DNA of 4,431 nt from a virus. Lineage: Duplodnaviria > Heunggongvirae > Uroviricota > Caudoviricetes. The notes beneath the pieces were generated by a model that searched no databases, had not been told where the DNA came from, and saw only the letters and a program-made list of their open reading frames with translations. The stretch is taken from IMG/VR virus record IMGVR_UViG_2541047122_000017, one strand, 5' to 3'. Every line of letters starts with the position of its first letter. Positions within the stretch are counted from its first letter, which is position 1. Of the stretch, positions 1 to 4,431 are shown in pieces. The translations under genes were made by a program, and so were the position numbers.

Positions 1-857
1 CTCCCCGGATCTTCATAGTCCTGTCCGTCACCTTTACGGATATACAGTCCCAGCGCCGCAGCAATACGCGCCGCTGTCAGTTCCGCATCCTCATACTCCT
101 TAAGGGCACTGATCCGCATCAGCACCCCCGATAACATGGATGAGCCTCGCGTCTGATGCAGACGACGAGTGAACTTCAGGTGGATCATTTTTCCGGCAGC
201 GATTTCTTTCGTATCACTCTGCCGGCCGCTGACCGGATAATTTTTATAAACCAGATATTTTTTCGGTCTTCCCCACTCATCAAGAAAAACCCCCTGATTC
301 AGTCCGGCGGATTCATCAGTGCGCATGGGAACAAAATCCGGCTCCATCGCCTCAAGCCAGAATGGCACTCCCGCCGTCCGTTCCAGACCGTTTCCCGCAC
401 CACTGACCATCTGCGCAAACACTTCACCATCCCGCAGCCAGGTCCGCAGCAGTAAACGTTCAAGCACAGGACGGGTATACTGCCCTGTCACATCCGGACT
501 CACGGACCATTCAGCCCACAAACGGCGGATATCCGCAGCCAGCTCAGCCGCCATTTCCCCGTTTTTTCGTAATGGCTGAGGCTCCACAATAATTCCCCTG
601 GCACCAATCACCCGCTCTTCCAGCTTGTCAAACACACCAATCACCAGGTCATGATTGATATCCAGAAAACGGGCCTGCTCCCGCAGGGAAACCGCACCGT
701 ATTTACTGAGCTGATCAGCAGAGCGATTTTCCCGCCGGGCTTTATGTGTCCGGGTCGGTTTCACCGCCTCATAGGCCATGATTAACGCCCTTGAACGCAG
801 TCTGGCTGCTTTCCACCCGGGGGAAAACACGCCGATCACATCATCAATAATTGCCAT
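1..857 (-). CDS. Phage portal protein (lambda gpB position), N-terminal 285 codons; the 3' end lies beyond the window start
   Basis: ATG at 857-855 shares one base with the W stop (TAATG) and is preceded by GAGG about 5 nt upstream. I hand-translated the frame and found no stop down to position 1 (MAIIDDVIGVFSPGWKAARLRSRALIMAYEAVKPTRTHKARRENRSADQLSKYGAVSLREQARFLDINHDLVIGVF...GLYIRKGDGQDYEDPG). It is absent from the supplied ORF track only because it has no stop inside the window. Product is assigned by synteny (terminase small, terminase large, W, portal, as in lambda); I could not verify portal-specific motifs from memory. Confidence 0.7.
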   Translation of the reverse strand, partial: MAIIDDVIGVFSPGWKAARLRSRALIMAYEAVKPTRTHKARRENRSADQLSKYGAVSLREQARFLDINHDLVIGVFDKLEERVIGARGIIVEPQPLRKNGEMAAELAADIRRLWAEWSVSPDVTGQYTRPVLERLLLRTWLRDGEVFAQMVSGAGNGLERTAGVPFWLEAMEPDFVPMRTDESAGLNQGVFLDEWGRPKKYLVYKNYPVSGRQSDTKEIAAGKMIHLKFTRRLHQTRGSSMLSGVLMRISALKEYEDAELTAARIAAALGLYIRKGDGQDYEDPG

Positions 858-1093
858 TAAAACCTCGCCAGTTTAAATCCCGGTTTTCCCCGCCTGCGGC
901 TCACCATCGCGGCAAGCCTGCGTTCCCACTCCTGACGTCCGGCGCGGATCTGAGAAAGGCTTTCCAGCGTCAGTTGCTGCCCGTTGAAGGTGACAGACTT
1001 TCCCTCCAGTACGGCCATTTCCGCTTCACGGTACCGCTGTATCATTTCTCTGGCTTCTTCTGTGCTCACAACCAGCCTCCTGATGTTATCCAT
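857..1093 (-). CDS. W: Head-tail connector / head completion protein, gpW-like (78 aa from the ATG at 1093; about 70 aa if the GTG at 1069 is the true start)
   Basis: Small ORF immediately downstream of the terminase large subunit. The C-terminal region (QEWERRLAAMVSRRRGKPGF) resembles the basic RRRGPAGF-type C-terminus of lambda gpW as I recall it; size and position match lambda W. Stop TAA at 859-857. Confidence 0.8.
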   Translation of the reverse strand: MDNIRRLVVSTEEAREMIQRYREAEMAVLEGKSVTFNGQQLTLESLSQIRAGRQEWERRLAAMVSRRRGKPGFKLARF

Positions 1094-3189
1094 GGATTAT
1101 CTTCCGCACGCTCCGTCCACAGTTTTTTCTTCCGGCGACGGCGTTTTTCTGCCCCGGCCGTCAGTTCCGGGGATACCGTTTCACCAGAACGCTCCTGCGG
1201 GAAGACGAGCCACGTTTCCCGCTGTGCCCAGTCCGGTGCGGAGGGCCAGCGGATCTTTTCGTAACCATGCAGAACGGCAAGCGCATCCGCATAAACCAGC
1301 AGGTCAAACGCTTCGTTAGCGCCCCTGCCCGGTTTTCGCCATTTTCCGTCACTGCCGCGCTCTTCATAGGTCAGCTCATCGTAAAACCACCGCCCCAGCC
1401 AGTCGGGAAAGTGGATATAGTTCGGCCCTGGTGTGTCACGCCACAGGGCATTATTTACACGATCCTTAAACGCATCCGTCTGAACCAGCCACAGCGCGAC
1501 ATCGCCACTGGCTCTGGCACGGCGGGCACTTCTGCCGGTATTATCCGGGAAGGTTCGGTTAATCAGCCTGTCACGGCGAAGTCCATCCCCCTTGAACAGA
1601 AACACCCTGTTGCCCAGTCCGTCACTCCGGCAACGACGCCAGAAACGATAGGCGTTATCTGTCACCCCGGCTTCCCCTCCCGTATCCACCGCCATGGCCA
1701 TCAGACGCATGCGCACATCCGGATCAGAAGCCAGCGGCCATGTTTTATGGAACACATCCGTCAGCAACAAATCCCAGTCCTCCGGATATGCCGCCGGATC
1801 AACCGGCAGACTTTCACCGTTGGGACTGCAGCGCAGTGAATGCCGGATGTTGTAGCGATCAACAATCCAGCGTTCCCCCTGCTCTCCGTATCCGGTGATC
1901 TGCACAACAAAACGGCGATTTTTACCGCCCTGTACGTCAACCGTTGCCTCAATAAAACGCACACCATCCGGCACAGATCGCCGGGGAAACGGCTCGGCAC
2001 GCTGTTCAAGCAGTTCACTTTTACGCTGTTCCGTGGCTGAACGGGGCAGATAGGGTCGTCCGATATCGGTGTTCACCACCGCTTTCAGGGTCTCTTCACT
2101 GCCGGTTCGCTCATACTCTTCTTCTGCCGCCAGCAGTTTAAAAATCAGTTGTTCCCAGGTCTGAAACGCCGCAGCTGGCCCCTCCATCCAAAATGACGCA
2201 ATCCGGGAGTTTCGTGGCGTTCCGGTGATACTGCCGTCCGCCGCCGCCCGTTCACCTTCACGAAGCCAGATCCCCTGGTTATTCAGTTCGCGTTTCTGCT
2301 CAGGGGCAATCAGCCCGCGACAATGCGGACACATCAGACGGGCAGCCTGACCGGCAGCCACAAAATCCGGGTTATTCCGGTATCCGGTCATGTTATCCAT
2401 CACCGGCTGAAAATATTCCCCGCAGTGCGGACACGGCCAGTACCACCGGCGGCGGTCTCCCCGGTTATACAGTGACAGGATCCCCGTTGTTGGCGGTGCC
2501 TCATGTGCGCCACCACAACGCCATTTGGTATCGGTGATATCCCGCCCCGGTGAACTCTCGACCAGGGTCATCCCCGAGGACATAAAGGTGGTGGTACGCT
2601 TTGAGGCCAGCGTGAAGGCATCCCCTTCCCCGTCCACGTTTTCAGGGAAACGGTCATAATCCGTCAGCGCCACACGACGGTAATCCGAAGAGGAAAAGAC
2701 GGTGATCGACGGCCAGCCAATCTTCAGGAAGGAGCCGTCAAGAAACATTTTATCGTGGACGTTGTTGTCATTACGGGAAGGACTGAGGCGCTTGCTGACC
2801 TCCGGACTGTGGCGAAACGTCCTGGAAAGACGCGTTCTGGAATGCTCACGCGCCTTCGTCTCAGTCATCTGCACCACCAGCATATCCGCCGGATCACAGA
2901 TGATGCCGTACACAATCCAGCCATCAATCAGCCCTTCGGTTTTCCCGGTTCGCGCAGGTCCCACAAACACCACCGCGTCATATTCACGGGCTGATAATGT
3001 ATTAATGGGGTCAATCATATAGGGCGTCAGCGATGACTCCCACGGACCGGAAGTATTGGCTCCCCGTGGAACCCGCATATAACGCCTGATGGCTTCCGCT
3101 ACTGGTAACCGGCTGGGTGGGCGAAACAGCGAGGCCACTTCGCGCCAGATATCGGATGCGCGGCTATGGCTCTCGTTCACCTGATTCAC
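1066..3189 (-). CDS. terL: Terminase large subunit, lambda gpA-like (707 aa)
   Basis: Long ORF with a canonical Walker A P-loop GPARTGKT (aa 77-84, nt 2938-2961). Two CPHC pairs (C253-x2-C256 and C287-x2-C290), the first (WPCPHCGEYF) resembling the CPHCGEE motif of lambda gpA. DTGG motif (MAVDTGGE) and a C-terminal region (EAFDLLVYADALAVL) reminiscent of lambda gpA (NEALDCFVYALAAL) from memory. N-terminus ...LFRPP... parallels lambda gpA ...LFRPEP.... Start is GTG at 3189-3187 overlapping the upstream stop (GTGA). Confidence 0.95.
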   Translation of the reverse strand: MNQVNESHSRASDIWREVASLFRPPSRLPVAEAIRRYMRVPRGANTSGPWESSLTPYMIDPINTLSAREYDAVVFVGPARTGKTEGLIDGWIVYGIICDPADMLVVQMTETKAREHSRTRLSRTFRHSPEVSKRLSPSRNDNNVHDKMFLDGSFLKIGWPSITVFSSSDYRRVALTDYDRFPENVDGEGDAFTLASKRTTTFMSSGMTLVESSPGRDITDTKWRCGGAHEAPPTTGILSLYNRGDRRRWYWPCPHCGEYFQPVMDNMTGYRNNPDFVAAGQAARLMCPHCRGLIAPEQKRELNNQGIWLREGERAAADGSITGTPRNSRIASFWMEGPAAAFQTWEQLIFKLLAAEEEYERTGSEETLKAVVNTDIGRPYLPRSATEQRKSELLEQRAEPFPRRSVPDGVRFIEATVDVQGGKNRRFVVQITGYGEQGERWIVDRYNIRHSLRCSPNGESLPVDPAAYPEDWDLLLTDVFHKTWPLASDPDVRMRLMAMAVDTGGEAGVTDNAYRFWRRCRSDGLGNRVFLFKGDGLRRDRLINRTFPDNTGRSARRARASGDVALWLVQTDAFKDRVNNALWRDTPGPNYIHFPDWLGRWFYDELTYEERGSDGKWRKPGRGANEAFDLLVYADALAVLHGYEKIRWPSAPDWAQRETWLVFPQERSGETVSPELTAGAEKRRRRKKKLWTERAEDNPWITSGGWL

Positions 3190-3662
3190 ATATCGGCCTC
3201 ATCACAACAGTCAATGACTGCCTTTTCCAGTGTGTCGCGGATCTCATCAACCACAATCTGTACTTCATTCAGTTGTGATGCGGTCCACCCCCTGTCCCTC
3301 TCCAGCCGGTCAGGCCAGGTTTCCAGTACCTGAACTATCGCTTTCACCACGACAGAAAAGGACCGCCTGACATCACTGACTGGCACAAGCTGAACAGTTT
3401 CATGCTGAAATTTAAGACGCTCGCGCTCGGACTGATACCATGCCTTACGAGCGTGAGGATCCATATCCTCATCTTCGGAAGATGGTGGTTTTTCCAGCAA
3501 CGAAGTTATCAAATCCGTCAGGAGATACAGTTTTTTCTTTTCATTACTGCCTGGTGCAAGAGGAACATCCGCCATTCTGGCGGCAACAGTCTGCCGGTGC
3601 AGACCTGAAAGGGCTGCCAGTTGATTAATATTTAACTTCATATTTTTCAGCTCGCCGTCCAT
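3186..3662 (-). CDS. terS: Terminase small subunit, lambda Nu1-like (158 aa; possibly 151 aa if the internal ATG at 3641 is used)
   Basis: N-terminal helix-turn-helix-like segment MKLNINQLAALSGLHRQTV parallels lambda Nu1 MEVNKKQLADIFGASIRTI (from memory). Sits directly upstream of, and is translationally coupled to, the terminase large subunit. Strong SD GGAGGG 6 nt upstream of the ATG at 3662. Acidic central stretch SSEDEDMD. Confidence 0.85.
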   Translation of the reverse strand: MDGELKNMKLNINQLAALSGLHRQTVAARMADVPLAPGSNEKKKLYLLTDLITSLLEKPPSSEDEDMDPHARKAWYQSERERLKFQHETVQLVPVSDVRRSFSVVVKAIVQVLETWPDRLERDRGWTASQLNEVQIVVDEIRDTLEKAVIDCCDEADM

Positions 3663-3847
3663 TTACATCCCTCCACATAAACCGCAGAACAGAAGTGACT
3701 CTGTTTTTTTGTAAAGAAATGCCGCCATATAAAGATGTCGAACAAAAAACAACCACAATCATCATCTTTTTAATACTAACAGCATTAAAAACAACAAGTT
3801 ACCATCATGATGATGATGACGATAAAATCACAAAAATGCGCCTTTTT
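3663..3847 (-). promoter_or_regulatory. Candidate cosB-like terminase-binding region (AT-rich, with repeated ATCATCAT / CATCATGATG motifs)
   Basis: About 185 bp of AT-rich non-coding DNA between the putative cosN and the terS start, the same place and roughly the same length as lambda cosB. Contains AATCATCATC (3757-3766) and the perfect 10-bp palindrome CATCATGATG (3803-3812) followed by GATGATGA. Function is inferred by position only. Confidence 0.4.
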
Positions 3848-3866
3848 CCGCGCCCGCCCGCCCCGT
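3848..3866. other. Candidate cosN (cohesive-end site); predicted 12-nt overhang about 3852-3863
   Basis: Minus strand reads ACGGGGCGGGCGGGCGCGG. This resembles the lambda cos junction ...ACG/GGGCGGCGACCT CGCGG... as I recall it, with the first six bases after the nick (GGGCGG) identical. It lies about 190 bp upstream of the terS ATG, similar to the cos end to Nu1 distance in lambda. It is the only strongly GC-rich block in an otherwise AT-rich intergenic region. Confidence 0.45.
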
Positions 3867-4117
3867 GTTCAGGCCCACCCCACCAGGAGGACCCGCAAAA
3901 ACGATAATGGTTATCATTTGCAACAAAATCCAGTTTCTTCCACCATCGCACCGGACTGGCGACTATGAGGGGACAACACCGCGCTCCGTTAACGCGGTAA
4001 ACCCCGGTGTGTATCGTTTTTGATTATCCCCGCACACTCTCGCAGAGGAGTCTCCCTGTCGGGCTGCGGTCTCTGTTAATGCAGGAATACGGTGACGATA
4101 CGGCGCATCAGCAAAAC

Positions 4118-4431
4118 TTAGTTCAGGCACTGAGTGCGGATATAGTCCTGTGCCCCTTCCAGCTGCTTCTGCATTGTCATCAACCGTTCTCTGAGGATGA
4201 AATAATCCCGTTCAGCGGTGTCTGCCAGTCGGGGGGAGGCTGCATTATCCACGCCGGAGGCGGTGGTGGCTTCACGCACTGACTGACAGACTGCTTTGAT
4301 GTGCAACCGACGACGACCAGCGGCAACATCATCACGCAGAGCATCATTTTCAGCTTTCGCATCAGCTAACTCCTTCGTGTATTTTGCATCGAGCGCAGCA
4401 ACATCACGCTGACGCATCTGCATGTCAGTAA
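4118..4431 (-). CDS. Rz: Rz i-spanin (inner-membrane spanin subunit), C-terminal ~104 codons; the 5' end lies beyond the window end
   Basis: Translation MQMRQRDVAALDAKYTKELADAKAENDALRDDVAAGRRRLHIKAVCQSVREATTASGVDNAASPRLADTAERDYF... is near-identical to the C-terminal two-thirds of lambda Rz as I recall it. The frame stays open upstream of the first in-window Met (..T-D-M-Q-M..) to the window edge. Stop TAA at 4120-4118. Confidence 0.95.
   Translation of the reverse strand, partial: TDMQMRQRDVAALDAKYTKELADAKAENDALRDDVAAGRRRLHIKAVCQSVREATTASGVDNAASPRLADTAERDYFILRERLMTMQKQLEGAQDYIRTQCLN
4180..4362 (-). CDS. Rz1: Rz1 o-spanin (outer-membrane lipoprotein spanin subunit), 60 aa, fully embedded in the +1 frame of Rz
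   Basis: MRKLKMMLCVMMLPLVVVGCTSKQSVSQCVKPPPPPAWIMQPPPDWQTPLNGIISSSENG matches lambda Rz1 almost residue for residue from memory. Signal peptide with lipobox LVVVG-C and a proline-rich mature region. Lies entirely inside Rz in another frame, the classic embedded-gene arrangement. Confidence 0.9.
   Translation of the reverse strand: MRKLKMMLCVMMLPLVVVGCTSKQSVSQCVKPPPPPAWIMQPPPDWQTPLNGIISSSENG

Follow-up and report, generated by a model that had tools for sequence, protein, structure and literature searches.

Modular composition of the compact Rz-to-cos interval in a VT1-Sakai-type lambdoid prophage, and a conserved non-coding block as a candidate structured RNA

How does a lysis end that is nearly that of phage lambda come to lie only a short distance away from a strongly divergent head module? 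This question is raised by a stretch of viral DNA of 4,431 nucleotides (nt) (IMG/VR record IMGVR_UViG_2541047122_000017; in the following referred to as the window), in which positions 3867-4117 separate the spanin gene Rz from the predicted cohesive-end site cos. The initial annotation had taken this interval for a mosaic joint and had placed the exchange point probably within the spacer. Here, the interval is read, with a probability of about 0.8, as the non-coding right end of a lambdoid prophage of the VT1-Sakai (Sp15) type, which is built of separately assorting pieces and whose compact layout is the commonest one. In phage orientation the Rz stop is followed by a joint of 10 nt, the conserved block (~180 nt), a pre-cos segment of 33 nt containing a palindrome, and the predicted packaging termination signal cosQ and nicking site cosN, after which cosB and the terminase gene terS come next. 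The block is the only part of the locus that may be new.

Comparison of the whole window with prophage VT1-Sakai (Sp15, Escherichia coli O157:H7 Sakai, AP000400) revealed 99.1% nucleotide identity, although the window differs from the Sakai copy itself, and several Shiga toxin 2 (Stx2) prophages were found to be 97-98.6% identical to it. The VT1-Sakai annotation lists Rz, the hypothetical protein H0025 (TerS), TerL and the portal in the order seen in the window, with the spacer being unannotated. As a consequence of the 99.1% match, the locus is an ordinary, already sequenced arrangement that is present in the databases. The spacer copy of E. coli strain 7784 is 100% identical to that of the window, at least 80% of the spacer is present in 394 of 5426 complete E. 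coli genomes, and two near-identical loci, one of them being that of strain 7784, likewise show the layout Rz, block, TerS. Within the 6 kb upstream of its locus, strain 7784 carries a tRNA cluster (Ile-Arg-Arg) and a DUF6645 gene, which are typical of Stx phages, with no stx annotated between.

The distance which gave rise to the question was identified to be ~254 nt from the Rz stop to the predicted nick, in agreement with the about 250 bp stated initially. In lambda, 2075 nt lie between the Rz stop (46427) and the right end (48502), and this interval, given in the initial annotation as roughly 2 kb including bor, holds bor and the two further open reading frames (ORFs) lambdap78 and lambdap79. 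The absence of a bor-like gene was confirmed, as neither an opposite-strand ORF nor any similarity to this moron was found downstream of Rz and lambda 46428-46866 is without counterpart in the window; likewise, no conserved ORF was identified on either strand of the spacer.

To what extent such a short interval is unusual can be derived from two samples, the first consisting of block loci gathered from annotated phages, E. coli genomes and IMG/VR contigs, with the neighbour genes placed by tblastn, and the second consisting of 79 viral-contig loci chosen by Rz similarity alone. The commonest arrangement was found to be Rz, block, DUF1441 TerS (26 occurrences), Rz, block, Nu1 was found 18 times, and the lambda arrangement, i.e. 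Rz, bor, block, ybcV-like, ybcW-like, Nu1, occurred eight times. Among the loci selected by Rz, 65 of the 79 possess the block, always on the Rz strand, and in 39 of these 65 the distance from the Rz stop to the start of the block is exactly 10 nt, which is also that of the window. In the remaining ones Rz and block are separated by inserts measuring 228-264, 440 (bor) or 734-1736 nt. Inserts at the left edge were identified as bor, kilA and rha and those at the right edge as ybcV, ybcW, DUF3950 and HNH. Morons, the independently expressed accessory inserts known from lambdoid phages as bor, lom and others, come and go here at two fixed points flanking the block, and the window corresponds to the empty-site state. 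Of the layouts between Rz and cos, the compact one is the most frequent, and lambda is an expanded form with morons at both block edges; the longer lambda interval is explained by bor and the ybcV/ybcW-like genes sitting at these edges. The short spacer is hence the usual layout among relatives.

A different origin of the short spacer would be the loss of bor and its neighbours by deletion in a decaying, defective prophage. That the VT1-Sakai prophage has IS629 in its head region, that the cosN tract of the window comprises 11 rather than 12 nt and that the record of phage ASU11 is without cosN would be in line with such decay. However, the 39 identical 10-nt junctions stem from independent viral contigs, the compact layout also occurs with true lambda Nu1/A heads (PhiR5_1 and the 18 loci mentioned above), and remnants of bor or ybcV, which were looked for at 4108-4117 and 3895-3927, were not detectable. 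Given that varied genes (bor, kilA, rha; ybcV, ybcW, DUF3950) occupy the same two points and that the empty site is most frequent, the pattern is one of moron insertion and not of deletion in this prophage, which renders the deletion scenario very unlikely.

The genes on either side of the interval, all located on the minus strand, were assigned as follows:

4118-4431, minus strand: Rz (i-spanin), 3' two-thirds, with the stop codon TAA at 4120-4118 and the start beyond the window (Pfam PF03245, E 5e-48)
4180-4362, minus strand: Rz1 (o-spanin), embedded in Rz in the +1 frame (Pfam PF06085, E 4e-20)
3663-4117: non-coding spacer of 455 nt between the Rz stop and terS
3186-3662, minus strand: TerS of the DUF1441 family (Fels-1/Gifsy type; Pfam PF07278, E 4e-48)
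1066-3189, minus strand: TerL of the gpA type (Pfam GpA_ATPase and GpA_nuclease, PF05876 and PF20454)
857-1093, minus strand: W-like head-tail joining protein (weak match to lambda W; gpW in the ASU11 annotation)
3-857, minus strand: portal of the lambda family, N-terminal 285 amino acids (aa), partial (Pfam PF05136, E 2e-58)

Rz and Rz1 were found to share 94% and 95% protein identity with their lambda counterparts, i.e. they are near-identical as noted at first, and with a PF03245 domain and a PF06085 Rz1 in the +1 frame they constitute a two-component spanin. Of a lambda-type head module, the gpA-type TerL and the lambda-family portal are present, with a DUF1441 protein taking the place of a Nu1-family TerS. 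The head genes had been described as clearly homologous to those of lambda and as much more divergent than Rz and Rz1. This description applies to TerL (24% identity to lambda A over 655 aligned positions) and to the portal (22% identity to lambda B, E 4e-4), whereas for the W-like ORF only a weak match was obtained (35% over 34 aa to lambda W, E 9e-4) and TerS gave no BLASTP alignment with Nu1, the Pfam families being different. Homology to the lambda counterparts may therefore be judged as fair for TerL and portal, as weak for W and as lacking support for TerS. Since divergence is far from uniform across the genes, the modular pattern recognized initially, with a lysis end of ~95% next to a head module of 22-24% protein identity, is real.

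This large gap in divergence would be accounted for most simply by one modular exchange through which a lysis module of the lambda type became linked to a foreign head module, the crossover lying within the 250-nt spacer, and many relatives indeed lose their similarity to the window inside the spacer. Global alignment to lambda in bins of 30 nt, however, located the identity step elsewhere. From 4431 to 4192 the window is identical to lambda in 238 of 240 positions and in the next two bins identity drops to 73% and then to 60%, i.e. uniform divergence was not seen and the step lies within the Rz/Rz1 overlap, ~75 nt before the Rz stop and outside the spacer. Moreover, the spacer itself holds lambda-homologous DNA, as a second patch (window 4107-3992 against lambda 46868-46981) was identified with 78.6% identity, which a profile search widens to lambda 46867-47033, that is from just past the bor insert to just before lambdap78. 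Lambda shares with the window the block, the palindrome, the cosQ heptamer, the left half of cosN, the R3-I1-R2-R1 layout of cosB and the gene order, and it differs by the presence of bor and of ybcV/ybcW-like ORFs, by the right half of cosN and by its Nu1-family TerS. As at least five distinct break points furthermore occur, varying with the partner compared, a single exchange is considered improbable and its proposed position in the spacer was not borne out. Instead, there is no single exchange point, and joints recur at several places:

4185-4195: identity step against lambda, with 99% on its right side and 60-73% on its left side
4108-4117: 10-nt joint from the Rz stop to the block, in other loci the insert point for bor, kilA, rha or an unnamed segment of 228-264 nt
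4108: recurrent joint, left edge of the block
~3928: recurrent joint, right edge of the block
3888-3871: recurrent joint between cosQ and cosN
3792 and 3470: recurrent joints at the ends of a swap comprising cosB and the 5' part of terS

With BP-4795-type phages, which possess HNH/P27-like terminases, similarity to the window stops at 3922, with PhiR5_1, which possesses the true lambda Nu1/A/W/B, it stops at 3888 inside cosQ, with ASU11 at 3871 and with CP-1639 at 3792. For the latter two, 99.4-99.5% identity resumes at 3469-3470 inside terS and continues through all of terL, so that these two relatives carry a joint replacement of cosB and of the ~190 nt at the start of terS (window 3470-3870). 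In accordance with this, the last 68 residues of CP-1639 TerS are identical to those of the window protein and the first 90 are ~60% identical, and the R repeats differ between the alleles, being of the CATCATC type or of the CACCATCACC type. The combined exchange of cosB and the TerS N-terminus looks like a swap of packaging-specificity alleles within the DUF1441 family. The specificity modules of lambda and phage 21 provide a likeness, as there, too, cosB and the N-terminal DNA-binding domain of TerS are exchanged together, the protein being Nu1 there and DUF1441 here. In the Fels-1/Gifsy/mEp460-type packaging module, which combines a DUF1441 TerS with a lambda-like cos, terS/terL show 66-72% nucleotide identity to the window; Fels-1 has the left half of cosN and CATCATC-type R repeats as in the window, and is without a match to the cosQ heptamer and without the block, and the mEp460-type phages have a 12-nt cosN tract and extra DNA flanking the block on both sides.

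The position of cos, on which the distance to Rz depends, was derived from the following elements of the spacer:

3903-3915: palindrome of 13 nt, GATAACCATTATC, 8 nt upstream of cosQ, read directly from the sequence
3888-3894, minus strand: cosQ heptamer GGGTCCT (packaging termination signal), equal to lambda 48473-48479
3848-3866, minus strand: cosN, composed of ACG, GGGCGGGCGGG and CGCGG, with the left half and the CG flank identical to lambda
3728-3820, minus strand: cosB-like region with inverted repeats and a match to the IHF consensus, as judged from sequence only
3809-3817: R3 core of cosB, ATCATCATC
3789-3801: IHF-like site between R3 and R2, with one mismatch to the IHF consensus and being the only match
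3758-3766: R2 of cosB, an inverted copy of ATCATCATC
3728-3737: third, R1-like repeat of cosB

The combined pattern GGGTCCT-N22-ACGGGGCGG matches once in the window (3894-3858) and in none of 200 shuffles. From cosQ to the predicted nick 31 nt were counted in the window against 30 in lambda, the same heptamer is annotated as cosQ in the record of phage 434, 24-30 nt from the right end, and cosQ was reported to be conserved across lambda-like phages (PMC4669245). The left half of cosN, ACG/GGGCGG at 3866-3858, is the same in lambda, Fels-1 and mEp460. Read in phage orientation across the predicted nick, the spacer of the window (...GATAACCATTATCGTTTTTGCGGGTCCTCCTGGTGGGGTGGGCCTGAACACG / GGGCGGGCGGGCGCGGAAAAAGG...) aligns at cosQ and at the cosN junction with the joined right and left ends of lambda (...GATAATCATTATCACTTTACGGGTCCTTTCCGGTGATCCGACAGGTTACG / GGGCGGCGACCTCGCGGGTTTTCG...). 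Between ACG and CGCGG, the tract comprises 11 nt in the window and in Sakai, 12 nt in lambda, Fels-1, mEp460 and PhiR40_1, 10 nt in CP-1639-type sequences (seven contigs) and 9 nt in the mEp460_4F5 record; the latter begins 4 nt before the predicted nick, and its tract, being 3 nt shorter, possibly reflects an assembly-end effect. The distance from cosQ to the right cosN flank is 42 nt in the window as in lambda, and 41-42 nt in all compared phages except for the shorter mEp460_4F5. Gifsy-1 was listed by Feiss and co-workers among the phages with lambda-like 12-nt 5' cohesive ends, and the right half of its cosN was found to be variable as well (PMC4669245). The order R3-I1-R2-R1 was described for lambda and Gifsy-1 (PMC9026076), and that in the window is the same. 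The position of the palindrome is kept in lambda (GATAATCATTATC), PhiR5_1, CP-1639, ASU11 and DLP12, and the palindrome is absent from mEp460-type phages.

Two further items were considered for the cos region and rejected. The record of mEp460 begins with the ATG of terS and is thus uninformative on cos, and a 90-aa hypothetical protein (Prokaryotic Genome Annotation Pipeline, WP_001302882.1) annotated in strain 155 across cosN, cosQ and cosB (corresponding to window 3696-3968, plus strand) is likely spurious, as its ORF arises from a 1-nt indel that fuses two short frames and occurs neither in the window nor in strain 7784. Scanning 3600-4200 for terminators and promoters revealed no terminator, and the one promoter-like site, located on the plus strand, is weak and at chance level. 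The ASU11 'complete genome' (ON416862.2) is without cosN at about locus 1300-1320, due either to a real deletion or to an assembly artefact at the virion ends; 44 nt of CP-1639 (GAACACGGGGCGGGCGGCGCGG...GATTT) are missing there between GGGCCT and TTATGG.

The remaining part of the interval is occupied by the block, which extends with sharp edges over ~180 nt (3928-4107, minus strand) and represents a conserved non-coding element and a candidate structured RNA on the late-transcript strand. It was identified in 398 phage records, in 391 of them at no less than 80% of its length, with identities of 75-100% and 97 unique variants. Carriers include lambda (46867-47033), 434, podoviruses of the 933W type such as VT2-Sakai, and the Salmonella phages ES18, in which the block lies at the right end of the record, and SPN3UB; in DLP12 of E. 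coli K-12 it is found at 579008-579177 between borD and ybcV, where RefSeq holds no annotation. Its edges are sharp in every comparison, the flanks being unrelated, its strand is that of Rz in all of 129 cases, and it precedes at least four types of terminase, namely DUF1441, Nu1, 933W-type and P27/HNH-type. A targeted scan for ES18-like variants revealed a nearly uniform family. One contig, IMGVR_UViG_3300045988_154548, carries two same-strand copies (5054-5237 and 6004-6187) ~950 nt apart. In assemblies representing one genome per species, matches to the block are mostly lambda DNA in unrelated taxa, namely Pseudomonas, Kitasatospora, Cohnella, Flavobacterium and several metagenome-assembled genomes; many of these contigs measure ~3.5 kb or ~48 kb, which looks like contamination with lambda used as sequencing control, and little diversity was added by them.

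A protein-coding function of the block was suggested by a sense ORF over it (window 3963-4130) which matches PHROG 6954 ('Rz-like spanin', E 3.5e-17) and whose frame is open across the block in 34 of 88 variants. Gp76 of phage P27 (locus 1535-1738) is annotated as 'Rz-like spanin' over the block as well, other records listing a hypothetical protein there, and neither a lipobox nor a membrane segment was obvious by eye in the peptide. Among the remaining 54 variants, however, the frame is interrupted by stops at 12 different positions, the third codon position of this frame shows the least variability (2.66, as compared to 5.53 and 4.51 for the other two), no reading frame is open in all block variants, insertions or deletions of 1 and 2 nt are frequent and the sense ORF gave no Pfam match. 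That the block encodes a small protein is thus highly improbable, and the spanin label looks like a propagated annotation error.

As to known RNAs, a permissive search of the whole window on both strands against Rfam 15 gave no match at E <=1, and no prior description of the block was found in the literature, subscription journals not being covered. The lambda RNAs LPR1/PreS (between ea10 and ral), LPR2 and 6S (pR' region) were rejected as identities of the block, their positions being different, as were PasA, PasC and PasD, which are located beside the holin/lysozyme operon, and PasB, which lies within structural genes and was reported to be limited to pathogenic lineages, in contrast to the block, which K-12 possesses. 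The small RNAs (sRNAs) reported in a RIL-seq study (interacting RNAs ligated and sequenced) of lambda and Hfq are located at places other than the block.

Folding of the aligned variants with RNAalifold gave a long-range domain, made of helices 1 and 2 and two small apical hairpins, and a 3' hairpin B, to which hairpin A was added by eye:

4095-4101 with 4011-4017: helix 1
4079-4089 with 4025-4035: helix 2
4054-4063 and 4037-4047: two small hairpins
3993-3998 with 3978-3983: hairpin A
3950-3956 with 3928-3934: hairpin B

Across 88 distinct sequences, the 37 pairs of this model are paired in 95.2% of cases as compared to 33-58% when the partners are slid, and 14 of the 37 pairs changed on both sides as compared to 4-9 with slid partners, values which were reached in 0 of 500 shuffles. 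A second, model-built alignment, weighted to Salmonella variants, led to the same outcome, with 1-5 both-side pairs when partners are slid. Compensatory changes are exemplified by hairpin B (CCGGU/ACCGG, CCUGU/ACAGG and UCGAU/AUCGA) and by helix 2, where C-G is replaced by G-C in lambda and by A-U or U-A in variants of the ES18 type. Cells with G·U are more numerous than those with A·C (349 against 56), and the consensus fold amounts to -24.6 kcal/mol on the Rz (sense) strand as compared to -6.6 on the antisense strand. Taken together, these data point to the block as a candidate cis-acting structured RNA of the late transcript, an assignment which is put forward tentatively and at odds not quite reaching even.

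Several points weigh against this picture. The cos assignment was made by sequence homology only and remains that of a predicted site, and its cosN tract comprises 11 nt as opposed to 12 in the characterised relatives, the cohesive end being a putative one. Regarding the block, the single-sequence sense fold is no more stable than shuffles (z = -0.91), the structure was derived from the same sequences that were used to test it, and only three or four lineages (effective number 1.58) are represented, hence there are few independent compensatory events. The block is furthermore absent from Fels-1 and from 12 Rz-selected loci with ample downstream sequence, i.e. it is dispensable for these phages. 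Finally, inverted repeats bound by a dimeric protein could co-vary, too. This leads to the main rival of the RNA reading, according to which the block acts at the DNA level as a protein-binding region or is a functionless 'linker' patch spread by recombination, its inverted repeats co-varying for that reason. Besides the unremarkable z-score and the phages without block, the coincidence of the block edges with recombination joints in every comparison is in favour of this possibility, as is the recombinant block of VT2-Sakai, the left half of which is lambda-type and the right half window-type, with one pair of helix 2 being broken. Yet, against a DNA-level role stand the strong asymmetry of G·U over A·C, the far better consensus fold of the sense strand and the orientation towards the late operon, which is fixed in all 129 cases; compensatory changes concern the long-range helices 1 and 2 and not just local palindromes, and 75-85% identity is kept between lineages with unrelated flanks. 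A role restricted to DNA or to recombination is therefore judged to be unlikely, though it is to be taken seriously.

Apart from this, a single exact Chi octamer, GCTGGTGG, is located inside terL (window 2874-2881, minus strand), on the phage-sense strand and ~1 kb right of cos. Octamers resembling Chi are located within hairpin B (GATGGTGG) and in the segment separating cosQ from cosN (CCTGGTGG), neither being kept as Chi in relatives.

Modular exchange around cos is textbook knowledge for lambdoid phages. As to how the pieces of the right end came to assort separately, work by De Paepe et al. revealed that lambda acquires DLP12 DNA over the Rz-cos-Nu1 region via homologous recombination (PMC3945230). 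The terminase cut at cos was reported to stimulate exchange on its left side, and 10 of 19 sequenced lambda-DLP12 junctions adjoin cos (PMC3945230). At the locus considered here, the terminase cut may likewise leave an unprotected double-strand end left of cos, at which homologous recombination would be stimulated. The 3' end of Rz, the block and the cosQ-cosN segment may then serve as the short homologies at which Red/Rad52-type recombinases cross between otherwise unrelated modules, and selection would hold cosB together with the DNA-binding end of TerS and cosQ/cosN together with the gpA-type TerL. The block would be transcribed as a cis-acting structured RNA within the Q-dependent late transcript, at the boundary of lysis cassette and packaging genes, where a role as RNA processing or stability element is the best guess. 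In its full form this proposal is a tentative one, put forward at less than even odds; it regards the block as a conserved, so far undescribed RNA that acts in cis within the late transcript, marks the lysis/packaging boundary and doubles as a homology patch for module exchange. Conservation of a small gene or of an sRNA within the spacer had been named initially as a finding that would speak against the modular reading; a conserved block with evidence for RNA structure was identified, a gene was not, and the modular reading stands.

The mosaic joint that drew attention to the interval calls for no new biology. What the present analysis adds is a map of the module joints at base level and the recognition that lambda, the reference phage, represents the expanded layout, the compact one being the common state. 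If the block functions as an RNA, a structured element in the late transcript of the most studied phage has so far been overlooked, and, if true, this element would be common to the Stx-converting phages of enterohaemorrhagic E. coli.

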